Shown: in pieces, positions 15,178 to 46,245 of the stretch
How the letters are laid out: the number at the start of each line of letters is the position of its first letter
Numbering within the stretch: position 1 is the first letter of the stretch
DNA from: a virus
Lineage: Duplodnaviria > Caudoviricetes
DNA length: 57,967 nt
Virus record (IMG/VR): IMGVR_UViG_3300030101_003566
Location: 1-57,967 of that record
Direction: 5' to 3' (one strand)
Translations under genes and position numbers: made by a program
Notes under the pieces: generated by a model
The model's input: only the letters and a program-made list of their open reading frames with translations
Told to the model about the DNA's origin: nothing
Databases searched by the model: none

Positions 15178-15368
15178 TGTATGACATTGATACTATTTTA
15201 GCCATGCAACAACTTGTAAAAAAAGAAATTGACAATACCAAGGAACATATAGTATATAACGTTAAAGATTTAGAAAATTTAGCTTTTGCTAAAGGTAAAC
15301 TCAACGGCTTAGAGCTGTTGCTTCAGGATTTAAAAGACCTGCAAAAAGGAGATAGTGAAATTGAGTGA
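15177..15368 (+). CDS. Hypothetical protein
   Basis: 63 aa, between portal and groES. Confidence 0.75.
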   Translation: MYDIDTILAMQQLVKKEIDNTKEHIVYNVKDLENLAFAKGKLNGLELLLQDLKDLQKGDSEIE

Positions 15369-15798
15369 GTTAATAAAACCAGATTATCTGGAAAACGAAA
15401 CCACATCAGACGAAGAAAACGAAGTTCTTGTACCTAAAGGACCAGAGCAGACCGCAGAATACTTATCTATGATACCAGACCCAGTTGGCTACCGTATGCT
15501 GATAAGACCTTATTCTGGTCCTAAAAAAACCAAAGGCGGTATTGCCTTAGCCGATAAAACTTTAGAAACCATTGAGATGACTACAGTTGTAGGTTTAGTA
15601 GTTAAAATGGGTGATCTTTGTTACAAAGACCATGTAAAATTTCCAACAGGACCTTGGTGTCGATTAGGCCAGTTTATTATTTATGGCAGATATTCTGGGG
15701 CAAGATTTAAAACTAAGTTTGGTGAGCATCGTATAATTAATGACGATGAAATCATTGGCACGATTGAAAAACCCGAGGATGTCCTCGCACTATTTTAG
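15355..15798 (+). CDS. groES: Co-chaperonin GroES (Cpn10) family protein
   Basis: PVGYRMLIRP...KTKGGIAL...GLVVKMG...YGRYSG...IINDDEIIG. Confidence 0.9.
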   Translation: MKLSELIKPDYLENETTSDEENEVLVPKGPEQTAEYLSMIPDPVGYRMLIRPYSGPKKTKGGIALADKTLETIEMTTVVGLVVKMGDLCYKDHVKFPTGPWCRLGQFIIYGRYSGARFKTKFGEHRIINDDEIIGTIEKPEDVLALF

Positions 15799-19962: not shown

Positions 19963-20286
19963 ATGGATATTACGGTAGAACAATATACAAATGATTTAAT
20001 AGGTTTGAAAAACGGGGGTATGCCTACTCGTAATAAAAAGAATTTTCGACCTACAAAATCAGGTGCTGGTATGACGAAAGCTGGTGTTAAAGCCTATCGT
20101 CGTATGAATCCAGGCAGTAAATTGAAAACTGCTGTCACTGGTAAAGTAAAAGCTGGTAGTAAAGATGCAAAACGTAGAAAGTCTTTTTGTGCAAGATCAG
20201 CTGGACAAGCTAAAATGCATAATATCAACTGCCGTAAAACTCCAAACAAACGCTTATGTCAAGCGAGGAAGAGATGGAAATGTTAA
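19963..20286 (+). CDS. Small basic protein (RRKSFCAR family)
   Basis: GMTKAGVKAYRRMNPGSKLK...RRKSFCARS...RKRWKC. Confidence 0.75.
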   Translation: MDITVEQYTNDLIGLKNGGMPTRNKKNFRPTKSGAGMTKAGVKAYRRMNPGSKLKTAVTGKVKAGSKDAKRRKSFCARSAGQAKMHNINCRKTPNKRLCQARKRWKC

Positions 20287-20408
20287 CAAACCTTTATAAA
20301 AATGTAGATAAGCTGTGGACTAAATATAAGAAGAGCTGGACTGCTCAAAGTTGTTTGATTAGGGACGGCATAATATTAATTTTGATTCTTTTAATTATAT
20401 TTGTATGA
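20274..20408 (+). CDS. Small C-terminal TM protein, possible holin/antiholin (44 aa, not in ORF track)
   Basis: MEMLTNLY...GIILILILLIIFV; ATGA overlap with the endolysin. Confidence 0.5.
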   Translation: MEMLTNLYKNVDKLWTKYKKSWTAQSCLIRDGIILILILLIIFV

Positions 20409-20872
20409 AACTAACTGACAATTTTTCTCTTTGTGAATTAACAAAATCTCAGACAGCAGAAAGACTTGGCATAGACAATTATCCAGATCAAGAGCAAATT
20501 GAAAACCTTAAAAATCTTTGTGAAAATATTTTACAACCAATAAGAAATTACTTTAAACAGCCTGTTATTATAACATCAGGTTATAGATCTCCAGAGCTAA
20601 GTAATAAAATTGGTTCATCGTCAAGGTCGCAACATTGTAAAGGCCAAGCGGCTGATTTAGAAATTGCAGGTATCTCAAACAAAGACTTAGCTGATTGGAT
20701 TAGCAAAAATGTTAATTATGACCAAGTTATTCTTGAGTTTCACGATCCATTGGAACCGCAGTCAGGGTGGGTGCACGTATCATTTGTAAACGAATATTCT
20801 AATAGGGAAAAATACTTAGTAGCTGAAAAAGATGAAAATGGCAAAGTGAGGTATTACAATGCCGATAGGTAG
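20405..20872 (+). CDS. Peptidase M15A-family endolysin
   Basis: ITSGYRSPELS...SQHCKGQAAD...GWVHVS Zn ligands. Confidence 0.9.
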   Translation: MKLTDNFSLCELTKSQTAERLGIDNYPDQEQIENLKNLCENILQPIRNYFKQPVIITSGYRSPELSNKIGSSSRSQHCKGQAADLEIAGISNKDLADWISKNVNYDQVILEFHDPLEPQSGWVHVSFVNEYSNREKYLVAEKDENGKVRYYNADR

Positions 20873-21020
20873 AGCTCAAATATCCAAACAAATATCAAAA
20901 GCACCACAAAAGAAAAAGTGGTCTAAAAAAAGAAAAGCTAAAATTAATTGTAAAAAACCAAAAGGATTTAGTGAGAAAGCTCACTGTGCAGCTCGTAAAA
21001 AAAGAGCTAGGTCTAGATAG
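20859..21020 (+). CDS. Small basic protein with a capsid-like N-terminus (53 aa, not in ORF track)
   Basis: MPIGRAQISKQISK...KINCKKPKGFSEKAHCAARKKR; GAGG SD. Confidence 0.7.
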   Translation: MPIGRAQISKQISKAPQKKKWSKKRKAKINCKKPKGFSEKAHCAARKKRARSR

Positions 21021-21064
21021 TGGTGCCTAAAACTGCTAATATTTTAAAATGACAGGAGGTTATT

Positions 21065-21358
21065 ATGGCTCAAAAAAAGAAAGGTCAAAAGCTATGCCCA
21101 AGGGGTAAAGCCGCTGCAAAACGTAAATTTGATGTTTACCCAAGTGCTTACGCTAACGCTTATGCTAGTAAAGTATGTGCTGGAAAGGTTAAAGACCCAA
21201 GCGGTGTAAAAAGAAAAGATTTTAAAGGTCCAAAACCAGTAAAGGATGGCGGTTTTATGGAAGTTGGAGATACACTAGGATCTCCTATCGACATGGATAT
21301 TGATGGCATGACTATGAGCAATCCATCTGCAAAAGCTTACTATAAAGATTTAATGTAA
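21065..21358 (+). CDS. Small basic protein
   Basis: KLCPRGKAAAKRKFDVYPSAYANAYASKVC. Confidence 0.8.
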   Translation: MAQKKKGQKLCPRGKAAAKRKFDVYPSAYANAYASKVCAGKVKDPSGVKRKDFKGPKPVKDGGFMEVGDTLGSPIDMDIDGMTMSNPSAKAYYKDLM

Positions 21359-21630
21359 TGAGTTTAAAAAAATGGTTTCAAGAGGATTGGGTAGATATAG
21401 GTTCTCCTAAAAAAGGGGGCGGATATAAGAAGTGTGGGCGTAAAAGTGCAAAAGGCTCAAAACGTAAATACCCCAAGTGTGTTCCAGCTGCCAAAGCAGC
21501 ACGTATGAGCAAAAGTCAGAAGGCTAGTGCTGTTCGTAGAAAGAGAGCGAAAGCTCAAGGGGTTGGCGGAAAACCAACGAATGTAAGAACCATAGATAAA
21601 AAATATTATGGTGGTTTAATACAAATTTAG
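21358..21630 (+). CDS. Small basic protein
   Basis: LKKWFQEDWVDI...CGR...YPKCVP. Confidence 0.8.
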   Translation: MSLKKWFQEDWVDIGSPKKGGGYKKCGRKSAKGSKRKYPKCVPAAKAARMSKSQKASAVRRKRAKAQGVGGKPTNVRTIDKKYYGGLIQI

Positions 21631-21639
21631 GAGATTATT

Positions 21640-22410
21640 ATGGCACGAAATATTAAAAAAACATACAAGAGTGATGCTGGGTTTAATTTTGATACCTTTC
21701 AATCTAAAGGTGGCAATATTGGCAACATAGATATGTCAGATTTTAGAAGTAAAAGCAATATTATAGGTAAAACTAATATTGGTAAAAAAATGTCACCTTC
21801 TTCTTCACGTTTTAAATCAAAAATAAAAAATCAAAAAGAAGATGGTTTGTTATCTAAATTATACAAAGCTTTATCTACCAAAAGCACATCTTATGACCCA
21901 ACTAAGGCTGGTCTGGGTGGTGCAAAATTTGCTCAAAGAAATGAAGGTGGTGTTGTAGATAAATTTACAGAAACTGATTTGAAAGAAGCGATGAAAAATT
22001 TCGATGCACAAATGAAAGCAGAAATAAAAGGTGTGGGTTCAAAAAAAGTTATTGATAAAGCTTATTCCCTTGCAAAACAACGAGAAGAAGGTGGTAGATT
22101 TTCTGTAAGTGATATTGAAGCTGCAATGCGATCATTGAGCAAAAAGAAAAAACCAGATTTTACACAAAAAAATAAAGGTGGCCTTCAAGAAGATTTGAAA
22201 AAATTAAAAGCAAGAGGTTTGAAAGACGGGTCTAAAAATGTTGTAAAAAATAAAAAGAAAAAGAAAAAGTTCCCTGATCTAAACAAAGACGGCAAAGTAA
22301 CTTTCAAAGACATCTTAATTGGTCGTGGTGTGGTGAAAGCTAATAAAGGCACCATGGTACAAGCAAAAGGTTGTGGTATGGCTAGGAAGAAAAAAACTAA
22401 AATGTTTTAG
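21640..22410 (+). CDS. Lys-rich mosaic protein with an EF-hand-like loop and an ejection-protein-like motif
   Basis: REEGGRFSVSDIE; DLNKDGKVTFKD; several xxGG motifs. Confidence 0.75.
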   Translation: MARNIKKTYKSDAGFNFDTFQSKGGNIGNIDMSDFRSKSNIIGKTNIGKKMSPSSSRFKSKIKNQKEDGLLSKLYKALSTKSTSYDPTKAGLGGAKFAQRNEGGVVDKFTETDLKEAMKNFDAQMKAEIKGVGSKKVIDKAYSLAKQREEGGRFSVSDIEAAMRSLSKKKKPDFTQKNKGGLQEDLKKLKARGLKDGSKNVVKNKKKKKKFPDLNKDGKVTFKDILIGRGVVKANKGTMVQAKGCGMARKKKTKMF

Positions 22411-22419
22411 GAGATTTTT

Positions 22420-22596
22420 ATGAAAAAAGGTGACAAAAAGAAAGTAAAAAAAGTTATTAAAGGTTTAAATAAAGCTGTAGGCTTACATGCAAAACAAGCT
22501 AAAACACTTAAAAAAGTTATTGGTGCAAACAAAGGGGTTCTAGTTAGAGGTACAGGTGCACAAGTTAAAAAAACTACGTTTAAAGGTGTATTTTAG
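22420..22596 (+). CDS. Small basic protein (58 aa, not in ORF track)
   Basis: MKKGDKKKVKKVIKGLNKAVGLHAKQA...RGTGAQVKKTTFKGVF; AGGAG SD. Confidence 0.75.
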   Translation: MKKGDKKKVKKVIKGLNKAVGLHAKQAKTLKKVIGANKGVLVRGTGAQVKKTTFKGVF

Positions 22597-22604
22597 GAGA
22601 CTTA

Positions 22605-23294
22605 ATGGCGACTTCAGGTACAACAGCATTTGATTTAGATATTGACGACATCATTCAAGAAGCGTATGAGCGTTGTGCTATTAGAACAAATAGCGGTAAT
22701 GATCTAAGGTCAGCTCGTAGAAGTCTTAATATTTTGTTTTCTGAGTGGTCAAACCGTGGCATACATTTATGGAAAGTTGCATTAAATACTCAAGCACTGA
22801 CATCAGGCACAGCTACATATGACGCTCCATCATCAACTAGCGACGTGTTAGAGGCATATATAAGCACTTCAAGTGGCACAACTGCATCAACTAATGATGT
22901 ATCACTTACAAAAATATCTAGAAGTGACTACGCCAGTAAACCAAATAAAGGTGCAACAGGTCAGCCATCAGAGTATTATGTGGATCGCCAAACTACACCG
23001 ACAATAACTTTATATCAAACACCTGATGCAAGTACCTTTACACATTTAAAATTTTATTGTGTTAAAAGAATTGAAGACGCAGGGGCTTACACAAATCAAG
23101 CTGACGTTGCGTTTCGGTTTATCCCTTGCATGGTAGCAGGACTATCCTATTACCTTGCGATGAAGATAAACCCTCAGTTAGTTCAACAAAATAAAATGAT
23201 TTACGAGGATGAGTTACAAAGAGCACTAACTGAGGATGGACAAAGAACTTCGGTGTATATAACACCGCAAAGTTATTATCCATCAGGGAGTTAA
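22605..23294 (+). CDS. Putative head-tail adaptor protein
   Basis: MATSGTTAFDLDIDDIIQEAYERC...ARRSLNILFSEWSNRG...AGLSYYLAMK. Confidence 0.7.
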   Translation: MATSGTTAFDLDIDDIIQEAYERCAIRTNSGNDLRSARRSLNILFSEWSNRGIHLWKVALNTQALTSGTATYDAPSSTSDVLEAYISTSSGTTASTNDVSLTKISRSDYASKPNKGATGQPSEYYVDRQTTPTITLYQTPDASTFTHLKFYCVKRIEDAGAYTNQADVAFRFIPCMVAGLSYYLAMKINPQLVQQNKMIYEDELQRALTEDGQRTSVYITPQSYYPSGS

Positions 23295-23296
23295 AT

Positions 23297-23671
23297 ATGA
23301 GTGTATTTAATTTAGCTTCATTTGGGGTGCGTTTTGGAAAACGTGGTATTAAAAAAATACTTGAGATACATAAAAAAAGTCAACAAAACAGATATATTAA
23401 AAAAAATTTTGATAAAGGTTCTGAAACAGAAAAAGCAAGTATGACTAATAAGTTTCTCAAAAATGAAACAGATTTAAAAAAATTAACTAAAGATAAAGAA
23501 GTTAAAAAAACTATAAACGCATTAGACAAAAGAAATAAACGTGGTAAAAAAGAACCTGGGAGTTACATACAAAAAAAATTAAAAGCGGAAGAAACATCAA
23601 AGTTTAAAAAAGGTAAGTTTGTTCAAGTTAAAACTAAATTAGGTCGTAATAGACCAACTAAATTGTATTAG
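23297..23671 (+). CDS. Lys-rich hypothetical protein
   Basis: 124 aa; ends GRNRPTKLY. Confidence 0.7.
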   Translation: MSVFNLASFGVRFGKRGIKKILEIHKKSQQNRYIKKNFDKGSETEKASMTNKFLKNETDLKKLTKDKEVKKTINALDKRNKRGKKEPGSYIQKKLKAEETSKFKKGKFVQVKTKLGRNRPTKLY

Positions 23672-34802: not shown

Positions 34803-34994
34803 ATGACTATTACAATAGACTGCGAATCTACAGTAAAGATTACAAATAAAAAGTCTGGTCTTGAGTACGAATCTGAGGAACAAGCTCAAGAGGATATTAA
34901 CGATCCAAGCACTTCTACCAAAGAAGATGACATACAGCGGGATGTCACTATCATAGTTCCTAAGCTTGACTTATTTGGGGAGACGAATGAGTGA
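34803..34994 (+). CDS. Hypothetical protein
   Basis: 63 aa; NKKSGLEYESEEQA. Confidence 0.7.
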   Translation: MTITIDCESTVKITNKKSGLEYESEEQAQEDINDPSTSTKEDDIQRDVTIIVPKLDLFGETNE

Positions 34995-35922
34995 GCCACT
35001 AGGCGGAACAGAATTACAATTAGCATTTTTAAAACAACGAGTTGACGCAAACTTGTTAGAACACTTTCAAATATGCACGTCAGTGCCTGGTAAAATTCCC
35101 TTAGATAACAATAAAATTAATATCTTATGGCAGAAAAACAGTTACGACCAACCAAATATCCGACCTTTTTTTGAAAATAAAGAAAACCATACTCTTTACG
35201 ATTGGTATGTTTTTAACTCGCATTGGAATTTTGAAAAATATAGAATGATGTATGACCTACCTACAGAGCGTTGTCATGTAATAAAAAACGGGATCACTCA
35301 TGTTCCAAAAATAAAACAATACAAACAAGGCGAAACCTTACGTTTAATATTTCAACCTACACCTTGGCGTGGCTTAAATGTTTTATTACTTGCCATGCAG
35401 TATCTAAATGATGAAAATATTGAGCTAGACGTTTACAGTAGTTGCGAAATTTATGGAAAAGAGTTTTTTAAAAATAATAATGAAGACTGGGTTGCGTTGT
35501 TTGAACAGGCAAAAAAACTACCTAATGTTAATTATATTGGGTATCAGCCTCATTCTGTTATTTTAGATAAAATGCCGGACTACCACATGTTTGCTTATCC
35601 TAGTATATGGGAAGAAACCTCTTGTATATCAGCTCTTGAAGCAATGGCCTCAGGGTTATACTGCGTGGTAACTAACTATGGTGCATTGTATGAAACATGT
35701 GCTGAGTTTCCGATATATATTAATTACACAAAAGATTACACAAAACTGGCAAAGAATTTTGCATTTGCTATTAAGACAGGTATGCAACATTTACATGAAG
35801 ATTACATACACGAACATTTACTTTTACAGCAAGATTATATTAATCGATTTTATCATTGGGACAAAAAAGCAATGCAATGGCAAACTTTTCTGCAAGGAGT
35901 TTTAGATGACAGACGCAAGTAA
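34987..35922 (+). CDS. Glycosyltransferase (GT-B / GT4-like)
   Basis: PLGGTELQ...YPSIWEETSCISALEAMASG (EX7E motif). Confidence 0.88.
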   Translation: MSEPLGGTELQLAFLKQRVDANLLEHFQICTSVPGKIPLDNNKINILWQKNSYDQPNIRPFFENKENHTLYDWYVFNSHWNFEKYRMMYDLPTERCHVIKNGITHVPKIKQYKQGETLRLIFQPTPWRGLNVLLLAMQYLNDENIELDVYSSCEIYGKEFFKNNNEDWVALFEQAKKLPNVNYIGYQPHSVILDKMPDYHMFAYPSIWEETSCISALEAMASGLYCVVTNYGALYETCAEFPIYINYTKDYTKLAKNFAFAIKTGMQHLHEDYIHEHLLLQQDYINRFYHWDKKAMQWQTFLQGVLDDRRK

Positions 35923-36712
35923 ACCTTTGTGGGCTGAGGAAGAGATTAGTATTTATGTAGCAACACCAGTACATTCTGAAGTATCCATACACTACGCACA
36001 AAGTATGCTTGAATTTCAAAAGGCTTGTTTAGATAAAAAAATAAATGTAACTATTGATATGATGAAATCTTCATTAGTCACACAAGGTAGAAACTTATGT
36101 ACTTCAGGTTTTTTACAGAGTAACATGACTCATATGTTGTTTGTTGATTCGGACATCGCCTTTTCCTCAGATAGCATATGGAGGATGCTTGAGGCTGACA
36201 AGGATGTCATTTCCGTACCCTACCCATTAAAACACATTAAGTTTGAGAGATTAATAGCCAAAATTTTAGCTGGTGAAGTTACCACACCAAAACAAGCTCA
36301 TGTGCATTGTAATACGTACCCTTTAAGACTTGAGGACAATGAATCTATTGAAGTGCAAGACAACGGCGTGATCGAAGTTACTCATGCCCCAACAGGTTGT
36401 ATGTTAATTAAAAGGCAAGTATTTGAAAAATTAATAGAACACTACCCAGACATGGACATAAATCAAGAGAGCATAATTGACGGCAAACTACAGAAAAAAC
36501 CTTATCTGTATAACTTTTTTGACACTTATTATGACAAAGACAACAAAAGGTTTCTTGGAGAAGATTTTGCTTTTTGCCGATTATGGAGAAAGATAGGAGG
36601 TAAGTGTTATTGTTACATTATGGATTACATTACGCATGTTGGCGAGTTTCAATACACAGGGCGTTTATGGGACGAAATGAAGCCTACGAGTATTGATAGC
36701 ACTGAAGAATAA
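35906..36712 (+). CDS. Glycosyltransferase (GT-A fold)
   Basis: VATP...SLVTQGRN...LFVDSD (DxD)...TGCMLIKR...GEDFAFC. Confidence 0.85.
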   Translation: MTDASKPLWAEEEISIYVATPVHSEVSIHYAQSMLEFQKACLDKKINVTIDMMKSSLVTQGRNLCTSGFLQSNMTHMLFVDSDIAFSSDSIWRMLEADKDVISVPYPLKHIKFERLIAKILAGEVTTPKQAHVHCNTYPLRLEDNESIEVQDNGVIEVTHAPTGCMLIKRQVFEKLIEHYPDMDINQESIIDGKLQKKPYLYNFFDTYYDKDNKRFLGEDFAFCRLWRKIGGKCYCYIMDYITHVGEFQYTGRLWDEMKPTSIDSTEE

Positions 36713-36750: not shown

Positions 36751-37686
36751 ATGTTACCTCAAATTATAGCTGGACTTGCTAGTTTCGCCTTGGCGAAAGC
36801 CTCCGGTGCCTCAACACGAAATGCTTTGATATCTGGGTTTTTAGGGGGAGCTACTTCATTTGGTATAAAACAATTGACTACAGCAGCTTCGGCAGCTGGT
36901 ACAGCAGCTACACAAGCAGACTTATTGTCTAAACTCGGAACTGCTAGTGAAGTTGCAAATATTGCAGGTGGCCCCGGTGCTGCAGGAGTTTATGGTAGTG
37001 CCGAGGCGTTAAAAACTTTAACAAGCTCTGTTCCTACTGAAGGCATAAGTGGTTTTTTAACAAATCAGTTTATGGAAAACCCAGAACTTGCACAAGACGT
37101 ATTAAAATATGGCTCTGGTTTAAAAGGACAAGTCTTAGCTCCAGGTTTTGTTGGTGGTTTGTATGGTGTGGCTAAAATACCTAAATATAACCCACAGTTT
37201 ACTGGAATATCCGATATGGATAAAGAAAAAAGAGCAGAGGAATACGCTAAGGCATCTCAACAACTTGAGGGTATAACCACACCTAGAGAATACGCTGCTG
37301 CAGAATCTCAGTATAAAGTGCCCTACTCAGAAATTGTCTTTGCTAAAGAGGGTGGCATTATCAATGCTTTGCCAAAATACAATATTGGGGGCGTTTCATA
37401 TTTACCTAGTAAAACGGATCATGATGAAAAAGATATTAACAATTATGTTAGAGCTCAAGGTTATGTAGAAGATGGCTCTGGCAATGGTGATAAAGATGAA
37501 GATACCATGTTAGCACAACTCGCTGATGGTGAGTTTGTGTCTCGTGCAGATGCTGTTCTTGGAGCAGGCATCATGGCAGGTGCAAATCCTGAGGACTTTA
37601 AAGAAATGCGTAGAAAGGGAGCTGCATTTTTCTACAATCAACAAGATCAAATGAAACGAATATATGATCTAGTAAATGCAAACTAA
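36751..37686 (+). CDS. Internal virion / ejection protein
   Basis: Hydrophobic Gly/Ala-rich N-terminus; C-terminal DTMLAQLADGEFVSRADAV domain. Confidence 0.65.
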   Translation: MLPQIIAGLASFALAKASGASTRNALISGFLGGATSFGIKQLTTAASAAGTAATQADLLSKLGTASEVANIAGGPGAAGVYGSAEALKTLTSSVPTEGISGFLTNQFMENPELAQDVLKYGSGLKGQVLAPGFVGGLYGVAKIPKYNPQFTGISDMDKEKRAEEYAKASQQLEGITTPREYAAAESQYKVPYSEIVFAKEGGIINALPKYNIGGVSYLPSKTDHDEKDINNYVRAQGYVEDGSGNGDKDEDTMLAQLADGEFVSRADAVLGAGIMAGANPEDFKEMRRKGAAFFYNQQDQMKRIYDLVNAN

Positions 37687-38089
37687 GTTTATTAAATTTA
37701 ACAAGTTTGAAGTAGAAAATATCTGGCCACTAGCAAAAGATTTAGTCCAACTGGCATGTGATACAAATGGTGCTTTTAATGCTAATGATATTAGAGACCT
37801 TTGTAAACAAGGAGCCATGCAACTCTGGTTAGTTGTTTCAGACTCCGATACGGTACTTGCGACAGTTGTGACTGAAATTAGACGCTACCCAAATTACAAA
37901 GTCTGTGATGCAAGAATCGTTACAGGCAGACAAATGGATTTATGGGTACATCATGTGGATGATTTAGAAGCATGGGCTAGAAAAGAGGGTTGTATAAAAA
38001 TGGAGTTATTTGCAAGACCAGGTTGGGAAAAGGTCATGAAACCAAAAGGGTATGTTAAAACACATGTACAAATAGAGAAAGAGTTATGA
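37676..38089 (+). CDS. Putative GNAT-like protein in the ejection module
   Basis: LEAWARKEGC...ARPGWEKV; position comparable to T7 gp13-like genes. Confidence 0.5.
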   Translation: MQTKFIKFNKFEVENIWPLAKDLVQLACDTNGAFNANDIRDLCKQGAMQLWLVVSDSDTVLATVVTEIRRYPNYKVCDARIVTGRQMDLWVHHVDDLEAWARKEGCIKMELFARPGWEKVMKPKGYVKTHVQIEKEL

Positions 38090-39126
38090 GTATTGATATT
38101 ACAAATTTAAACATGCAAGAAAAGATTAAGTTGTTCGAGCAACTTTATGAAGAAATCACGGCTCACGGAACGAATGGTGACGTGCATTTAGCACATATTA
38201 ACGAGTATGAAAGAAAACTTCTTATCGCACACGGTGGTTGTGGCACAGTCAATGATGAAACTGGGCTAACACAATACTTTGGTGGCGGTGGCGGTGGTAG
38301 TAGTGGACCGGAAAGGCAAACTACAATTACTCGTGAGGCACCAGAGATTGAAGCTCGTAAACTTGCTTTGTTTGATGTTGGTGCTGAACTGGCAAAAACA
38401 CCAGTAAACATACCAGCATTTCAAGTAGCAGGTCCAGCTCCATTAGAAACACAAGCTTTTACTGCTGCAGCACAGCCTGGTGTTGGTCAACCTCTATTAC
38501 AACAAGGTATAACTAGTGCTTTAAATGCACAACAGACCGCCATGCAACCTCCAGACATTAATGCTTTTATGAACCCATACATGGATAATGTTATTGGTGA
38601 AATACAAAGACAAGGTGAGCTACAAAGACAAGGTATTGCGGCCAATGCTATTCAAGCAGGTGCTTTTGGCGGAGGCAGAGAAGGTGTGCAATTAGCAGAA
38701 CAACAAGGTCGTGAACTTGGAACCATTGGTCAAGCTCAAGCCGCTGGATTTGGTACAGCTTTGGGTGCCGCTCAACAACAACAAGCTTTACAATTACAAG
38801 GTCAACAACAAGCCGCTGCTCAATTAGCTGCTGCTGCTGGTCAACAACAACAGATGGCACAAGCAGATATAGCACAAGCTGCTCAACTTGGTCAGGCACA
38901 AAGAGGCATTGGTCAAGCAGAACTGGAAGCACAAAGACAAACAGAACTAGCCAGAGCCTATGAGCCGTTTCAAAGAGTTGAGTTCCAAAAAGGTATCATG
39001 ACAGCGTTGCCGACCGCAGCGAGTCAGATAACACAAGCCGCTTCACCAAGGGCAAACCCACTTGCACAAACAGTTGGGACAGGTCTTGGTGCGTATGCAG
39101 CATTTAAAGGATTACCAGCATCGTAG
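38086..39126 (+). CDS. DNA ejection (pilot) protein
   Basis: Gln/Ala-rich; FMNPY and AGAFGGGR motifs; N-terminal GDVHLAHI...ETGLTQY domain. Confidence 0.7.
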   Translation: MSIDITNLNMQEKIKLFEQLYEEITAHGTNGDVHLAHINEYERKLLIAHGGCGTVNDETGLTQYFGGGGGGSSGPERQTTITREAPEIEARKLALFDVGAELAKTPVNIPAFQVAGPAPLETQAFTAAAQPGVGQPLLQQGITSALNAQQTAMQPPDINAFMNPYMDNVIGEIQRQGELQRQGIAANAIQAGAFGGGREGVQLAEQQGRELGTIGQAQAAGFGTALGAAQQQQALQLQGQQQAAAQLAAAAGQQQQMAQADIAQAAQLGQAQRGIGQAELEAQRQTELARAYEPFQRVEFQKGIMTALPTAASQITQAASPRANPLAQTVGTGLGAYAAFKGLPAS

Positions 39127-39133
39127 GTGACTT

Positions 39134-40645
39134 ATGGTAGATAAAGTACTACAACGTAAAATGTTTAGAAAGAAAGCACTTGAGAAATATGGTGGTGATA
39201 TGTTGCCTAAGTTTAATGAAAGTGGTTTGATGGAAGGTGAAAAAAACACACAAAATAACATGCAAAATTTTGACCTCATTAATGTTTTAAAAGATTTTGG
39301 TGTTGGTTCACTTGATACAGATGCTTCTGCAAATATTCAATATAATGATACCAGAAAACGGGACATGTTATTAGCTGTTGCTGGACGTTTATTACAAGCA
39401 GAGCAAAGACCTGGAGAGGGCATGTTTGCAGGTGTAGGTCGTGGTGTGGGCAAAGCCATCACTGAAGACTTTCCAATCATTAAAAAATTAGATTTAGAAA
39501 GTCGTGCTGCAAGAACAAAAACTGGTACAGTTAATAAAACTAAAGTATTTGATACTATTGATAGAGAACAAAAACAGATATCCTTTGCAGAGTACGATGC
39601 TGATCGCAAGTCAGCAAACCCTCGTTATATCATAGGGGAGGAACAAACTTATACTATTGGTATTGATGGCACTGCTTTTGGTGATAAAGGCAGATTAATT
39701 ACGCTTGATCCCCTTCAAATAAATCAATTAAAAGATAGATTGGGAGATAGTTTTTCACTTATTTTTAGACCAAAAGGTGAAAGAGACAGAGAAGCGGAGA
39801 TTGAACAATTTTATCAACAAAAAAAGATTGAAAAAGATATTGAGAGAATTGATAAAGCTGAGACAAAATTGGGTGAACTTGTAAATAAAAATACACAAGT
39901 ATTGGATATATCTGACAAAATTATACAAAACCTTGAGGGTCAAGGAGATGTTGCATTGGAAGGTGATAAAGCTATTGCAGGTTTTGTCGGAAATGTTATC
40001 TACGATATTAATAGTTTCATTGGTGGTGCTAAAGCTACCTTTGAAGTATTTGGTGCAAGTCCTACTGAATCAGTTAATGTTGAAAAAGATAAAGCTATTG
40101 AATTTATGAAATCTACAAACCAAGCAGATGATATTCAAGACTATTTAGATAAATTAGCAGAAACTGAAAGCGGTAAACGAAGATTTGGTCAAGATCGAAT
40201 AGATAGAAGTACATTAGAAAGATTTGCTGGATTGTCCGCAGAAAACAAAACCTTAATTATTGAACTTGCTTATGGTATAGCGAAATCAAGAGAGGAAGGC
40301 GGAAGATTTAGTGTTAGTGACATTGAACTTGCCATGGCTAGTATTGGAAACACATCGGATAGAAAGATGGCAAAAATTCAATTAAAAGCGATACAATATA
40401 CAAGATCCTCTGCAATCACTTCACAAATAAAAACTGACCCAAGATTTAAAAAGTTTTTTGTGGGCACTAGAGGAAATGCTAAGAAAGAAAAAGCAGCGTT
40501 TGACAAAGTATTGGATGTAGTTCCTGAAGTTTCTCCTTTTGTTAATATTTATTTAATGAATAGATACCCTAAAGTTTATGGACCAGATGCAGAGCCAATT
40601 AAGAAAGAGGGCAGAACTATTAAAAAAAAGGAGGAGGGTAAATAA
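39134..40645 (+). CDS. Internal virion / ejection protein
   Basis: 503 aa helical; VLQRKMF start and GRFSVSD motif. Confidence 0.65.
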   Translation: MVDKVLQRKMFRKKALEKYGGDMLPKFNESGLMEGEKNTQNNMQNFDLINVLKDFGVGSLDTDASANIQYNDTRKRDMLLAVAGRLLQAEQRPGEGMFAGVGRGVGKAITEDFPIIKKLDLESRAARTKTGTVNKTKVFDTIDREQKQISFAEYDADRKSANPRYIIGEEQTYTIGIDGTAFGDKGRLITLDPLQINQLKDRLGDSFSLIFRPKGERDREAEIEQFYQQKKIEKDIERIDKAETKLGELVNKNTQVLDISDKIIQNLEGQGDVALEGDKAIAGFVGNVIYDINSFIGGAKATFEVFGASPTESVNVEKDKAIEFMKSTNQADDIQDYLDKLAETESGKRRFGQDRIDRSTLERFAGLSAENKTLIIELAYGIAKSREEGGRFSVSDIELAMASIGNTSDRKMAKIQLKAIQYTRSSAITSQIKTDPRFKKFFVGTRGNAKKEKAAFDKVLDVVPEVSPFVNIYLMNRYPKVYGPDAEPIKKEGRTIKKKEEGK

Positions 40646-43600
40646 TGGCTGAAGAAGAAATTAAAATTGAAGATATTGAAAGCTATGATCAAATGCTTGA
40701 AGAGTATCCTGATATTGTAAAATCTTATGATTCTCCTGAAGAATTAGCTATGTTAGTTTTTCAAGAAAAACAAATAAATGCTTATGATAATAATGCAGGT
40801 GGCAGATTAAATATTTTTGATTTTTTTGATACTTTTTTACCTATAAATAAATACACAGATTTAAAGAAATACCGTGAGTCGTATACGGGTACAGCTCCAT
40901 TGCCCACAGACAATCTTGAACTTTCTAATATTATGTATCAAGATTTGCGTAAAGAAATAACTAAAGCTAATAATGAATTATATAAATATTCAGGAAGTAC
41001 TTTTAAAGAGGATTTATCAACCTTACCTTTAAATTTATTAGATTACGCTAATGCTGTTCATCCACTTGAAAGAAATGAAACTTTAGTTCGCCGTTCTATG
41101 GGCTTTGATTTAGAAAGGTTTAATAAAAGTTTAAATAGGTATACGGGTGAAAAAAGATACAATTATGATGACATTGCAAAAGTTTTTGGTATTGACTTTG
41201 CAAGAAATGATATCTTAGATGCTGAGATTGAAAAGGCTATAGGGTTTGGTAATACAAAAGAGGATAAAAGAGCAATGAGTCAAAGTGTTTTAATGAAACA
41301 CTATGGTGACATATTAGGCAGAAAAATAACACCAGAAGAATTAGGGTATACTTACGACGATAACTTAAATCTTGATGTTTTCACAGATCCTATAACAAAA
41401 AAGCAAAGATATGTGGATAATCCAAGCAGAGACGGAATATCAAAACTTTATGGACCAAGTATAGCCATGGCTTTTGATTTTATAGGCATGGTAGCTATAG
41501 GCGGACCTACTTCTTCAATTATAAGAAACGTTTTTCAAAAGGCAGTGCAAAAATTAGATAGTTTTTTTGCAAGGACTACTGTTGATGCAGTTTCTGGAGT
41601 AGCAAAAACAGCTGCGTATAGTACTGGATCGGGTGTTGGATACGATTTAGGTATGTTGACTAAAGACGCAATAAGAGAAATGTATTTAAATCCTGATTTA
41701 ACTAGAGAAGAATTTGGCGATATATTTTTTCCCATATTTAATGAAAGAATACTAAAACCTGCAATTGACTCTATTCCATTTGTTGGAGACGGTAGCACAG
41801 AATTTGCCTTTGACCAAGATGCGGCTGAATTTACTGCTATATTTGATGCATTGTTTAGATTAGGTAGAGGGGTTGGTTCTTTATTAAGGGGTAACAAAGT
41901 AGGTAAAGAAGAGTTTAAATACTTAACAAAAAATATTAAAGACTCTGACGAAGTTGCAAAGTATTTAAACAAAATGGTTAAAGAACAAAGAAAAAAATAT
42001 GAAAATTTAGAATTACCTGAAAATCCAGATTTAATATTTACAGTAGCCAATTCAGCAAGAAGATCAGATTTTAAGTGGAGACAAGAACAATTAGCGAACT
42101 CAACTAAATTTGGTGATAAGTTTGAAGACCGACTTTTTCAAAACATGACAGCTTTAAGAGATATGTTCCAATTAGAAATGATGGCAGCGTCTAAAAAAAA
42201 TATTGAAGACGCTCTTAGAGTCATCAAAGAAGGTGGTGATTTTGCTGATACGACAGTCGGTAAAAACATCATAGATATTGTAGAAGCATGGAAAAACCCA
42301 CAAACTCGTAAACAATTGGATAAAGTTTTTAAAAATGCTGAAGAGATGGAACAGATATATGGTAAAGGTCCCTTAAAAGACATTATTGCGGAAACTGAAA
42401 TCAGAGGTCCTTTAGAATTAATATTAGATAGTTTTGATGCAAATGTACGTAGAATGTATCAAAAAATTGACAAAATTTCACAAATTAACAAAGTAGGTAA
42501 AATACCAACAAATAATTATGAAAAAGCAATTAGATCACTTGATAAACGAGACAGAGATAGTCTTATTAAAAATAGTGTTAATGCAGCCTCTTTTGTTAAA
42601 GATATTTTACCTAAAGAAATATCTTTTAAAGTTTTACGCAACACTAGAAGTGATTTATTGCGTATGCAAAGGCAAGGTAAGTTTGATGATTTACCTGAGG
42701 GAGTTGGTGAGAAACTTATAAAAGCTCTAGATGACGACATAGCCGCATGGGGTAAAACAGATAAAGCAAGAGCTTTGGTTGCTGATGAATTTAAAAGAGC
42801 ATCAGATTTTTACCGTGAAGGTAAATCAGAATTTTACAATGTTTTAAAAGAGGTTTTGGAAAAAGATGCAGCAGGTAATTACAAAATAGCTGGTGCAGAA
42901 GTTTTTCCGACAGTGTTTAAACCAAAAGGCACTGCTGGTTATATTAAAAAAGTAAAAGATGTAAAACTTTTATTTAGAAACAGAGATTTTAAAAATGCTT
43001 TTTTAAAAGATTTAAAAGACTTTTATAGAAGAGAAGTTATTGGTGATGTTCAAAAAACTACTAAGACTGGTGTTGTAGATTTTAAAACCATTGATCCAAA
43101 AAAACACACAGCTTTCATGGATAAATACGGAGAACAAATTAAAGTTTTGTTTCCTGAAGAACATGCAAAACTTACAAATGTTAAAAATTCTTTAAAAACT
43201 TTTGATGATTCAATAGCTGACTATAATAAATTTATAGACAAATTAAAACAAAAATCAGGTGGTAGAATTCTTGACTTAAACCCAGAAAATATAGTTGATG
43301 AATTGTTCAATTTTGAAAATAAACAAGTATTATTAGATGTTACTAAAATTGTTCGTGAAGCTGATAAGGAAGCTTTTGGTGATATACAAGCTGCTATATT
43401 AAGAAAAATTTATAGAGAAACCACTCTTAAAAACCCAATTAACGGTGTTGATATATTTAATCCATATAAATTTAATGATTTAATGAGTAACAAAAATTTT
43501 GAAATTTTAAGAACTGTTTTTGATGAAAAACAAATTAAATTTTTAGATAAATTTAATAAGGCTTTAGCTATAGAGTTAGGTCAAGTAGCTTCAAGAGAAC

Positions 43601-44205
43601 AATTAGAAAAAATAGGTCCAGATTTAATTACACAAGGTCTAGTAAGAACTTTTTATGCACGTCCGTTGTCTAGACCAGGTATATTTTTTACAAATTTTTT
43701 AGCACGATTTGACGAGTATCATCAAAAAAGACTTGGAACATTAATGCTTGAACCAAATGCTGATAAAGCGATATCTGAAATTGAAAGATTGTTTAGAACT
43801 GGTAAAACTTTTGAAGCAGAACAACTGATGTTAGATTTTCTTAAACTACCAAGAAACTATTTACTTTTAAAAGAAGGCTCTAAAGCAACAGCAGACGAAT
43901 TTTCTACTGATGAGATTGAAGAAAGGAGATACAATAATAAAGTTAAAAAATTTGAAGATAGTTTATTTAGAGGTAGACGAAAGTTAGAAGATCAAACAAT
44001 ACAACCACAATCAAAACTATCTCAACAACCTATTAATGTGGCACAAATGAATAACATGGCTCCCACGGGCACAAATCAAGCGACAACAAATCAAGCCCCT
44101 ATGGTATCGAACCAAAACCAAGGGATAGCGTCACTCACTGACAGTTCTGTAGAGGGTGCTAATCTTGCCAGAATGAGAGCTTTCTTTCCAACGGGGATAG
44201 TATGA
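40645..44205 (+). CDS. Large internal virion / ejection protein
   Basis: 1186 aa helical; last gene of the ejection block; C-terminal GIASL...FFP. Confidence 0.65.
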   Translation: MAEEEIKIEDIESYDQMLEEYPDIVKSYDSPEELAMLVFQEKQINAYDNNAGGRLNIFDFFDTFLPINKYTDLKKYRESYTGTAPLPTDNLELSNIMYQDLRKEITKANNELYKYSGSTFKEDLSTLPLNLLDYANAVHPLERNETLVRRSMGFDLERFNKSLNRYTGEKRYNYDDIAKVFGIDFARNDILDAEIEKAIGFGNTKEDKRAMSQSVLMKHYGDILGRKITPEELGYTYDDNLNLDVFTDPITKKQRYVDNPSRDGISKLYGPSIAMAFDFIGMVAIGGPTSSIIRNVFQKAVQKLDSFFARTTVDAVSGVAKTAAYSTGSGVGYDLGMLTKDAIREMYLNPDLTREEFGDIFFPIFNERILKPAIDSIPFVGDGSTEFAFDQDAAEFTAIFDALFRLGRGVGSLLRGNKVGKEEFKYLTKNIKDSDEVAKYLNKMVKEQRKKYENLELPENPDLIFTVANSARRSDFKWRQEQLANSTKFGDKFEDRLFQNMTALRDMFQLEMMAASKKNIEDALRVIKEGGDFADTTVGKNIIDIVEAWKNPQTRKQLDKVFKNAEEMEQIYGKGPLKDIIAETEIRGPLELILDSFDANVRRMYQKIDKISQINKVGKIPTNNYEKAIRSLDKRDRDSLIKNSVNAASFVKDILPKEISFKVLRNTRSDLLRMQRQGKFDDLPEGVGEKLIKALDDDIAAWGKTDKARALVADEFKRASDFYREGKSEFYNVLKEVLEKDAAGNYKIAGAEVFPTVFKPKGTAGYIKKVKDVKLLFRNRDFKNAFLKDLKDFYRREVIGDVQKTTKTGVVDFKTIDPKKHTAFMDKYGEQIKVLFPEEHAKLTNVKNSLKTFDDSIADYNKFIDKLKQKSGGRILDLNPENIVDELFNFENKQVLLDVTKIVREADKEAFGDIQAAILRKIYRETTLKNPINGVDIFNPYKFNDLMSNKNFEILRTVFDEKQIKFLDKFNKALAIELGQVASREQLEKIGPDLITQGLVRTFYARPLSRPGIFFTNFLARFDEYHQKRLGTLMLEPNADKAISEIERLFRTGKTFEAEQLMLDFLKLPRNYLLLKEGSKATADEFSTDEIEERRYNNKVKKFEDSLFRGRRKLEDQTIQPQSKLSQQPINVAQMNNMAPTGTNQATTNQAPMVSNQNQGIASLTDSSVEGANLARMRAFFPTGIV

Positions 44206-44714
44206 GATTTACAACAGCAGCTTGGATTTTATTCTTAGCGTGGTTGTTGTTGTATGTTACAAACAGTTTCGCAGCGGATAGTAATATTTATTACAAAGAC
44301 CAGCCTCCAGCGTCTGCTATATCACCATCCGTATCCATCGGTGGCGGTAGCGACGTATGTGTGGTAGTAAGATCAGGTGCATTGGGCACAAGTCTATTCA
44401 ATGCTTCAGCGGGTATACATGTCATTGATAAGACTTGCGAACGCATTAAATTATCACGGGCCATGGCTCAACTAGGCCTCCGTGTTTCTGCCACAGCTAT
44501 TTTATGTCAAGACCCACGGGTCTGGCAGGCTATGTGGGACTCTAACTCTCCATGCCCAATTGATGGTAAAATAGGAGAAGAGGCAAAAAAACTTTACATC
44601 GAAAGAGGGATGGTAAAACTAGATGAACAAGGTAATCTTGTGTCTGCTCCTGGCATTCACATCAACATTAGTAAGCCACGCCGAGTCAACGACTTCGGAC
44701 AACCTACTCAATAA
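44202..44714 (+). CDS. Exported Cys-containing protein
   Basis: Signal peptide ending SFA; CERIKLSR...ILCQDPRV...PCPIDG. Confidence 0.75.
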   Translation: MRFTTAAWILFLAWLLLYVTNSFAADSNIYYKDQPPASAISPSVSIGGGSDVCVVVRSGALGTSLFNASAGIHVIDKTCERIKLSRAMAQLGLRVSATAILCQDPRVWQAMWDSNSPCPIDGKIGEEAKKLYIERGMVKLDEQGNLVSAPGIHINISKPRRVNDFGQPTQ

Positions 44715-46245
44715 TCCAAATTTTACGACTGATACCAGTGGCTGGGAGTTGTCTGATAATAACCAAGATAAGGTCAAAAGAGACCCTGCGACTTATTCTG
44801 GTTCAGCATCTAAAAGTGTAAGATTTAGGTATCAAGGCGGCAACATAAGTCAAGATGTTGATACATCCAGTTTACCGGAAAATCATTTAATTAAAGAAAT
44901 TAATATGAATTTTGATTCCATCGGTTGTGGTAACTCAGGCACTGAATGGTGTAATGCTGGGGCTGATGATACGGTGGTGTCTACCATTACGATTGAAAGT
45001 GCAACTGAAATAGAGGTAATATCTGAATCTGTAGCTGTGCCATATGAAGATGGCTGGGAAAGCTATTCTTTTACTAAAGATGTAACAGGCGATTTCAATA
45101 CAGACGATACCTCACTTAATCTGACAATCACGGGTAATGATACAGGTAACAGCAGTAACTGGTATGGGCCTATCATCGACAATTTGAATTTTAGTGTAAC
45201 CACAGAACAATATGTGGCTCCGATAGTAGAACCTATTGTAATTACACCTGTCATTGTTGAGCCTATAATAGAACAAACTGTCATTGTTGAGCCCATAATA
45301 GAACAAATAGTTGAGCAAGAGATAACCAACTCTATTGTTGGCGGACTTGATTTAGAAATGTCTGTTACTAATGAAATAATATTAGAACAGCCAATTATTG
45401 AAATAACACCTGTAAGTGTAAATATTACACCAGATATTAATTTAGATATGCCCGTAGAAATATCGGTTGAGCCGATTGACATGGACATACCAGAACAAAT
45501 TGATGTTGTCATTGAAATCCCTGTTGCACCTGTAATATCGGTTGACGTGCCAGACGTGGCTAACTTAGCACCCATAGATCAGATCGACGAGATTCAAGAA
45601 ATAGTTGAAATTGAAATTCCTGAAGTCGTTGAGGTCGAAGTTGATGTGGATGTTAGTGTCGATAGCGTGGTTGAGGAACCCGCTGAATTAAATAGCGAAG
45701 ATACACTTGACCAGGATGTAGCCGAAGTCAGTGAAGAAAAATTAGAAAGTAGTGAGGAGGTTCAAAATGAATCAGAAGAGGAAACAACAGAGAATGAAGG
45801 AGAAGCAACTAGCGAGTTATCAAACTCAGACGAAGTTGAAGAGCAAAGTGACGAAAGTAAAACCGTCGCAAAAAATAAACCTAAAGACAGCAAAGTTAAA
45901 AAGAAAAATGAGACTAAAAAGTCCACCACTAAAAATAATCAGCCTAAGCAAAAAGTTAAAAAAGTGGATAATAAAACTGAAAAGAGCAATACGTCAGCAC
46001 CTTTAAGCGTTGAGCGACTGGTGCAGATGACGCTACCAAATGCCTATTTACAAACGCTACAAGATACCCTTAAAATAGTAGAAACCGTGTCAATTACACA
46101 GGATATGATATATGAACAAAACACTTACGATCTCGTCGGGACTTCTTTTGAGTCTAGTTTTGGGGGCGATAGTGCCGATAGGTTCGACAGTCTATTGGGT
46201 CGCCAATTTAGCTACGAGAGTGGAACATACCGAAGAAGCCGTTAA
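44623..46245 (+). CDS. Exported protein: beta-sandwich domain, long acidic/Pro linker, Lys-rich segment
   Basis: Signal peptide; NLLNNPNF...YGPIIDN; 30-bp tandem duplication at 45248-45307. Confidence 0.7.
   Translation: MNKVILCLLLAFTSTLVSHAESTTSDNLLNNPNFTTDTSGWELSDNNQDKVKRDPATYSGSASKSVRFRYQGGNISQDVDTSSLPENHLIKEINMNFDSIGCGNSGTEWCNAGADDTVVSTITIESATEIEVISESVAVPYEDGWESYSFTKDVTGDFNTDDTSLNLTITGNDTGNSSNWYGPIIDNLNFSVTTEQYVAPIVEPIVITPVIVEPIIEQTVIVEPIIEQIVEQEITNSIVGGLDLEMSVTNEIILEQPIIEITPVSVNITPDINLDMPVEISVEPIDMDIPEQIDVVIEIPVAPVISVDVPDVANLAPIDQIDEIQEIVEIEIPEVVEVEVDVDVSVDSVVEEPAELNSEDTLDQDVAEVSEEKLESSEEVQNESEEETTENEGEATSELSNSDEVEEQSDESKTVAKNKPKDSKVKKKNETKKSTTKNNQPKQKVKKVDNKTEKSNTSAPLSVERLVQMTLPNAYLQTLQDTLKIVETVSITQDMIYEQNTYDLVGTSFESSFGGDSADRFDSLLGRQFSYESGTYRRSR

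Follow-up and report, generated by a model that had tools for sequence, protein, structure and literature searches.

A short helix-loop-helix module shared by a basic protein and a presumed ejection protein of an uncultured pelagiphage

Why should two otherwise dissimilar proteins of one phage carry the same 13 residues? The question is raised by IMGVR_UViG_3300030101_003566, an entire IMG/VR virus record of 57,967 nucleotides, estimated complete and with a guanine-plus-cytosine content of 36%, which was analysed as a whole and is called the window here. The peptide, REEGGRFSVSDIE, is identical in p256 (256 residues, 21640..22410) and p503 (503 residues, 39134..40645), both encoded on the plus strand, as are all parts of them described below. 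An earlier note, made from the letters of the sequence, had proposed that the copies co-evolve, one mimicking the other. We found instead that the peptide belongs to a portable module of about 30 residues, strongly conserved in the p503 family and labile in small basic proteins.

The portal protein of the window shares 64% identity with its counterpart in Pelagibacter phage HTVC023P and 54% with that of HTVC027P, and because of these identities the window is assigned, on sequence grounds, to an uncultured HTVC023P-type pelagiphage. It encodes a terminase, a portal, a major capsid protein, an M15 endolysin, two SU10-type adaptor proteins, tail-fibre proteins and a DNA replication block. HTVC023P-type pelagiphages are described in the abstract of PMC9599517 as widespread and among the most abundant marine viruses.

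The shared peptide and its fold

Positions 22060-22128 encode AYSLAKQREEGGRFSVSDIEAAM (p256 residues 141-163) and positions 40268-40336 encode AYGIAKSREEGGRFSVSDIELAM (p503 residues 379-401). The two stretches agree at 19 of 23 residues; at ten of these the codon is shared, and at nine a synonym is used. Within the 13-residue core the split is six shared to seven synonymous codons, the latter with, for example, TCT/AGT for serine and CGA/AGA for arginine. The nucleotide identity of the copies, 50 of 69, fell to 54%, 49% and 43% when flanks of 30, 60 and 90 nucleotides per side were included. When the whole proteins were compared by BLASTP, a single significant segment was obtained (p256 residues 137-166 against p503 residues 375-404, 21 of 30 identical, E 1e-10), the next-best one reaching only E 0.18. 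This segment, together with the codon comparison, the alignment of homologues and a motif profile, defines the p256 copy of the module at 22048..22137 (VIDKAYSLAKQREEGGRFSVSDIEAAMRSL) and the p503 copy at 40256..40345 (IIELAYGIAKSREEGGRFSVSDIELAMASI). Searched against the whole genome at E<=10, the profile matched precisely these two sites.

A chance origin was rejected: the 13-mer is the longest exact peptide common to any two of the 145 open reading frames (ORFs) of at least 50 residues in the window, whereas in 100 composition-preserving shuffles of the proteome the longest shared peptide had six (52 shuffles), seven (45), eight (2) or nine (1) residues. Recent gene conversion or duplication was also rejected, since the codons of the two copies have diverged. 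In 36 distinct nucleotide versions of the module the fixed serine is encoded by AGT (16), TCT (13), TCA (4) or TCC (3), and the fixed arginine by AGA (23), CGT (11) or AGG (2). Since the core differs in seven of its 13 codons and the relatives draw on both families of serine codons, selection acts on the amino acids of the peptide and not on the DNA. The earlier note had stated as much, and its description of an identical peptide with seven synonymous codons, in proteins otherwise unrelated, was thus confirmed by the codon comparison, the shuffles and a similarity limited to 30 residues. Its label of a basic protein is also correct for p256, with 64 lysines and arginines against 26 acidic residues and an isoelectric point (pI) of 10.2.

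The p503 protein belongs to a widespread family, 400-700 residues in length, of uncultured marine phages of the podovirus-like kind, which comprise HTVC023P-type pelagiphages and others beyond them. A word-based homologue search with p503 gave 57 proteins, 56 of them from this family, and the motif, written as a regular expression, matched all of the 56 except P0054. When 33 homologues with 18-79% identity to p503 of the window were aligned, 18 columns proved invariant, 13 of which fell within residues 380-400, and by sequence the peptide is the most conserved island of the family. Variable positions of the module include 388 (E/P), 394 (V/T/I) and 395 (S/T/P/A). Presence counts in the 49 viral loci that we collected are partly circular, as the motif itself was used to collect them, but the diversity of codons is not.

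The profile, 42 columns long, was then searched against 1.84 billion cluster representatives (E<=0.001) and 134 of them were matched, 85 with 400-700 residues and 47 shorter. About 29 of the 47 resemble fragments and have retained the p503-type context. Of all 134, fifteen are rich in lysine and arginine, namely 14 of the shorter ones and the 487-residue P0094. We set aside two very long proteins, P0144 and P0184, and the repeat protein P0172, in which just the latter half of the profile is matched, repeatedly; they were taken as unrelated repeats. P0172 (422 residues) has about eight repeats of DxGGYYTATDVEAALQELG and may represent an unrelated tail-fibre repeat with the same pattern of a turn plus a helix start. 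In more distant members of the family the consensus relaxes to LAYxLA[KR]A[RN][DE]PGGRLSDxD[VI]xxAxxxLG.

No Pfam, PHROG or NCBIfam family matches the module, and its profile gave no match among all PDB sequences at E<=10. When p503, p256 and the giant neighbouring protein p1186 were compared by tblastn with 50,697 phage records, nothing was found at E<=1e-3. The sole find for the 42-residue module, in Vibrio phage douglas 12A4 (E 5), was taken as chance. So was one locus with AKxRE[EP]GGRF among 185,579 prokaryotic species genomes, a match of 10 residues in a frame that has a stop codon.

The AlphaFold2 (AF2) model of full-length p503 was mediocre, with a pLDDT (predicted local distance difference test) score of 61, although its C-terminal part was confident. 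A model of the C-terminal helical domain (residues 355-490; 40196..40603), built on an alignment of 90 sequences, has a pLDDT of 79 overall and of 83-94 in the blocks covering the module. A long helix (369-386) is followed by a loop of seven residues (387-393, EEGGRFS) and a short helix (394-404), so the module is predicted to be a small self-contained alpha-helical hairpin. Helix 1 ends with A-Y-x-x-A-K-x-R-E, the turn is a tight G-G, and helix 2 starts with R-F-S-x-x-D-I-x-x-A. By the textbook rules of helix capping, F-S-x-x-D-I can be read as an N-capping box with a hydrophobic staple, opening helix 2, and G-G would cap helix 1; the long run of fixed residues would then arise because the peptide encodes a rigid hairpin.

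Comparison of the full-length model with PDB and BFVD by Foldseek gave nothing at E<=0.001, the top viral row being an unnamed protein with E 1.2e-3 and a TM (template modelling) score of 0.19, and VIA-align returned only generic helical bundles with Z<8. The domain model likewise gave nothing against PDB in Foldseek at E<=0.001. A predicted complex of p503 residues 355-490 with p256 residues 107-181 scored 0.00 in both runs; the fold of the partner was uncertain, and the result speaks neither for nor against binding.

A labile cassette in basic proteins

The p256 protein is a lysine-rich mosaic. Its residues 1-117 are orthologous to a stand-alone protein of 136 residues in the related viral record G006, and its residues 107-256 correspond to stand-alone proteins of 149-151 residues in the records G001 and G013. 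The whole family (36 matches) is built in this mosaic manner from a basic N-terminal part, the hairpin, a lysine tract, an EF-hand/dockerin-like loop and a conserved C-terminal tail. The hairpin is intact in p256 of the window, in G001, in G013 and in several metagenome proteins, degenerate in P0002-P0005 (AKKDKISVSDIEAAM), and absent from the G006 orthologue, which keeps the N-terminal part and the EF-hand loop. A tandem duplication of 19 residues of the hairpin was found in P0023 and P0157, and two or three copies of the hairpin in P0013, P0035, P0093-95 and P0155, so that the number per basic protein ranges from 0 to 3. Direct reading and alignment also revealed a degenerate half-copy in p256 itself, KFTETDLKEAMKNF (residues 108-121; 21961..22002), consisting of the loop and helix 2 only, which gives no score with the motif profile.

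A sign of mobility comes from p97 (21065..21358, plus strand), a basic protein without the module in the window. Its homologue P0208 carries the hairpin within an insertion of about 105 residues, the flanks of which are 82% and 64% identical to p97. Among the short carriers of the module, 19 of 21 have a pI of at least 9.2, and in the sub-lineage of the window the lysine-rich carriers are encoded between the endolysin and head-tail adaptor genes. We also searched 16 related viral records whole. The p503-type copy was present in all 15 that hold that gene and the second copy in G001 only, G013 being a fragment with just the basic-protein copy. Among the four records that are at least 85% complete one has the second copy; it was not found in G002 (96% complete), G003 (98%) and G004 (85%), although incomplete records cannot prove its absence. 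Judged from these comparisons, the second copy is a labile, portable cassette that has spread secondarily among the small basic proteins of the late gene block.

These data bear directly on the proposal of a co-evolving mimic, by which the p256 copy would imitate the p503 element, either to act at an ejectosome interface (as placeholder, competitor or chaperone) or to lure a host sensor or protease as a decoy. It is true that 13 residues have been kept identical in one genome despite synonymous divergence. However, the core is just as invariant between genomes, and identity within a genome therefore needs no co-evolution. Both copies were available on one record only for the window and G001; a scan with the p256 C-terminal alignment for more two-copy genomes gave six loci, of which only G001 was long enough. 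Over 27 positions the p256 copies of these two genomes differ at two and the p503 copies at four, while the two copies inside either genome differ at seven. Orthologous copies are thus closer to each other than copies of the same genome, and the comparison, thin with only two genomes, shows no sign of concerted evolution and points away from it. The earlier note had itself named loss or independent drift in relatives as the contrary outcome, and the second copy is indeed absent from G002, G003, G004 and the G006 orthologue, degenerate in P0002-P0005 and multiplied in P0023 and P0013. Because of the closer orthologues together with these losses and duplications, we consider a co-evolving mimic very improbable. 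Module shuffling, combined with strong constraints on fold and interface, is here a better explanation for the occurrence of one and the same peptide in two proteins of a genome.

Two further elements of p256 were noticed that behave in a similar way. The EF-hand/dockerin-like loop and its helix, FPDLNKDGKVTFKDILIGRGVV (22270..22335), matched Dockerin_1 (E 0.011) and EF-hand_7 (E 0.014) in the Pfam scan, neither reaching the cut-off; p256 relatives carry precomputed PF00404/PF13202/PF00036 assignments. The canonical-looking loop, DLNKDGKVTFKD, recurs single or doubled in small basic phage proteins (P0026-P0036 and gp53 of HTVC023P) and is a separate module that also travels among basic proteins. 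Another shared peptide forms the C-terminal tails of p256 (22360-22407, ending in VQAKGCGMARKKKTKMF), p58 (22540-22593, GTGAQVKKTTFKGVF) and p124 (23610-23668, VQVKTKLGRNRPTKLY). It recurs at the end of HTVC023P gp51 (AAVRGMGFKGVF) and of P0186 (VKARGCKLGRTRPTKMY), and looks like one more portable module. All three proteins belong to a group of seven small, very basic ones (p107, p53, p97, p90, p256, p58 and p124; pI 9.7-11.8) encoded at 19963-23671, around the M15 endolysin and first adaptor genes. Family matches in this group include DUF6321 for p107 (E 1.5e-14) and, weakly, DUF5872 for p90 (E 0.004). Could they be internal proteins that coat the DNA?

What the hairpin may do

One option of the earlier note, a shared docking signal, is the most plausible function of the hairpin, and we put it forward as a proposal. 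The conserved charged residues around the turn (K384, R386, E387, R391 and D396) would present one common surface, through which the carriers would bind the same partner in the virion or ejectosome, or each other. Basic proteins would thereby be recruited to the site of p503, for co-packaging or co-ejection. As a whole, the reading of the module as a portable hairpin serving as a shared interaction or docking piece has, in our estimate, a probability of about 0.55. Its structural and evolutionary part is highly probable, and the docking function by itself falls somewhat short of even odds.

Several points weigh against this reading. No proteomics placing p503, p256 or the other basic proteins in the virion was found in the published passages searched. 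The conservation counts are partly circular, as homologues with a retained motif are found preferentially by word and pattern searches, and the module is absent from gp82 of HTVC023P, an N-terminal homologue of p503 in a cultured phage. In the p503 model the hairpin is packed inside the helical domain, so that its invariance could reflect folding alone; the helices that follow it in p503 are absent from p256, and the two copies may differ in role. Finally, the module is net acidic, which is odd for part of a DNA-coating protein.

A direct contact with DNA was considered as well. The hairpin could correspond to the alpha2-L2-alpha3 half of a histone-fold-like helix-strand-helix, which would pair in trans, touch the DNA backbone with its loop arginine and serine, and so link the basic proteins and p503 to the packaged genome. 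Like the histone fold, it has a long helix, a loop of about seven residues and a short helix, with an arginine, a hydroxyl residue and an aspartate around the loop, and its carriers are very basic proteins. In a VIA-align all-against-all comparison with the domain model, every top row covered only model residues 1-51, that is, the hairpin. About 19 of 50 rows, judged by titles and chain lengths, were chains of the nucleosome, TFIID/SAGA TAFs, NC2, CENP-T/W/S/X or CHRAC (Z 4.2-5.5, root mean square deviation 2.2-3.2 Å, about 50 residues aligned), and the best Foldseek rows were H2B, NC2 and MHF (E about 3). Passages of PMC11390915 describe an RxTxxxxD motif in histone L2 loops, whose R and D give the loop its shape and whose T binds to DNA, and the module has a comparable R-x-S-x-x-D. 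Yet this string, R391-F-S393-V-S-D396, is two residues shorter than the histone motif and does not match it, the Z values lie under the tool's trust mark of 8, no alpha1-L1 element is evident, and the net acidic charge is again awkward. Pfam PF00808 gave no match at E<=10 over the six frames of the genome, in a search that responded in eight of 14 control genomes and rose above the cut-off in three; a Pfam scan of the 141-residue C-terminal part of p503 at E<=10 returned no family. On balance a histone-like fold seems unlikely. Quite unlikely, too, is the bolder version of docking in which the hairpin is a trans-pairing helix-strand-helix unit that clips lysine-rich DNA-coating proteins onto p503. 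If it were true, an abundant ocean phage would couple a primitive 'chromatin' to its ejectosome and deliver DNA-bound cargo with its genome, and the copy number of the cassette (0-3) would tune the amount of cargo loaded.

The other helix-loop-helix that comes to mind is the EF-hand, with its loop of 12 residues, oxygen ligands at positions 1, 3, 5 and 12, and glycine at position 6. The hairpin could be a degenerate relative, metal-binding or not, with a canonical EF-hand as its pairing partner; in p256 this could be the DLNKDGKVTFKD loop, and such a loop lies 60 residues downstream of the module there and in many relatives. In favour of this idea, the loop has glycine at position 6, a hydrophobic residue at position 8 and aspartate at position 12 (Gly-x-hydrophobic-x-x-x-Asp, as in the F-hand of dockerins), and glutamate at position 3 fits as well; in a MAFFT alignment the module stands above the EF loop found in the G006 orthologue, and the p256 copy weakly matches EF-hand_EFHB_C (E 0.039; 14.2 bits, where the cut-off is 27). 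However, oxygen donors are lacking at ligand positions 1 and 5: among 36 versions, position 1 varies between non-acidic residues (A 25, S 4, Q 4, T 2, V 1) and position 5 is always glycine. At E<=10 the p503 copy gave no match to an EF-hand model; a second EF-hand is missing from p503, and EF-hand proteins surface in Foldseek only at E 7-8. With hidden Markov model scores that stay sub-threshold, we regard this reading as improbable. More remote still is a processing site, in which the invariant G-G-R-F-S would be recognised or would cleave itself during assembly or ejection. All that speaks for it is that a short loop, invariant serine included, is strictly conserved in several proteins of one late block. 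No prohead protease was recognised among the scanned proteins of the window, tandem copies in proteins as tiny as P0157 (62 residues) make cleavage unlikely, and the loop is modelled as a tight helical turn. The internal proteins of T4 offer a related case: their N-terminal capsid-targeting sequence is removed by the prohead protease. The likeness lies in the idea that a short shared peptide directs several unrelated proteins to one site of the particle. In contrast to the T4 sequence, the module lies inside its proteins (residues 137-166 of 256 and 375-404 of 503) and is helical and repeated.

We return to the shared docking hairpin, the reading that we prefer, and to its wider meaning. The motif strings were not found in the literature searched, and the passages of PMC9599517 contain no discussion of these proteins. 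The module of about 30 residues is thus undescribed, although of a familiar kind, a short module shuffled among phage virion proteins. Late proteins of HTVC023P-type phages are almost all annotated as hypothetical, and a large family of presumed ejection proteins can be recognised by the module. Being short enough for synthesis, the peptide gives a handle for finding binding partners, and a cultured carrier exists, Rhizobium phage RHph_N3_19. Modest follow-up is merited because of the abundance of the phage group and because the peptide can be used directly as bait.

The gene neighbourhood and cultured relatives

The p503-family gene stands at the end of the structural gene block, immediately before the gene of a giant protein. 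In the window the latter is p1186 (40645..44205, plus strand), which starts at the stop codon of p503 and is a presumed ejection protein by position and by an Atlas lead. Three further genes of the conserved module, p311, p137 and p346, lie upstream of p503 (36751..39126, plus strand) and correspond to gp79-gp81 of HTVC023P. By tblastn in 44 related loci, p311 was found in 35, p346 in 36 and p1186 in 33. A large ORF (435-984 residues, running off the end of the locus) begins within a few bases of the stop codon of the p503 homologue in 42 of the 44 loci; the other two end too early to show it. None of p311, p346, p503 and p1186 matches a PHROG, Pfam or NCBIfam family, and none of 33 p503-family members matches Pfam Inj_translocase (PF16928) at E<=1. 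In the Atlas, look-alikes found by a language model were clusters with Inj_translocase for p503 (score 0.85, a lead only) and clusters with Phage_P22_gp16 for p1186 (score 0.93, on 63% of members). The earlier note had called p503 an ejection protein outright. Gene position, size and the Atlas leads make this a reasonable presumption, and it is kept here as such, not as an established fact.

The arrangement resembles the ejection proteins of P22-like podoviruses (gp7, gp20 and gp16), where a gene run closing the structural block also ends in a protein of about 500 residues and then a very large one; the difference is that p503 and p1186 lack matches to the corresponding models. We know of no comparable shared peptide in the P22 proteins. 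HTVC023P, the closest cultured relative, has a syntenic layout, including small basic proteins (gp50-gp53), the last of which has an EF-hand loop. Its gp82 has the first 30 or so residues in common with p503 (E 0.001) but comprises only 286 residues and is free of the module, and the motif profile found no match at E<=1 in the whole HTVC023P genome, gp53 included. In Rhizobium phage RHph_N3_19, EVB99_090 (597 residues, annotated as hypothetical) is a cultured member of the p503 family, aligned on the module by hhalign (probability 96.8%, E 2.5e-10, 117 columns), and is directly followed by a protein of 1,248 residues. The profile matched this genome once (E 9.3e-5) and gave no second copy. The module of EVB99_090, SAYAIAQANASDGKVSKNDLDNAMQIIG, has diverged, with GG changed to DG, R to K and F to V.

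We also noticed two viral contigs, L039 and L042, in which p137 and p346 are 97-98% identical to their counterparts in window 36751-40645. Their p503 is 64% identical across the first 129 residues and then diverged, with the module variant REPGGRFSVTDI, and the giant protein downstream is not recognisable as p1186, which suggests, from sequence, a recombination breakpoint inside the p503 gene. Another sharply conserved island of the presumed ejection module is the end of p311: its last 55 or so residues (37450-37683; ...DTMLAQLADGEFVSRADAVLG...RIYDLV) are 81-90% identical in distant loci where p503 is just about 25% identical, and are also kept in gp79 of HTVC023P.

Some other genes of the window deserve mention. 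A GroES-like co-chaperonin gene (15355-15798; phrog_3188, E 3.7e-13) lies between the portal and head genes. Two glycosyltransferase-like genes (34966-36712) are located in the structural block just before the presumed ejection module, and the pair is arranged likewise in HTVC023P (gp77 and gp78). At 44202-46245 there are two ORFs with signal-peptide-like N-termini, neither of which matches a family; the second one (540 residues) contains long acidic repeats rich in V, I, E and P (EPIVITPVIVEPIIEQ...).

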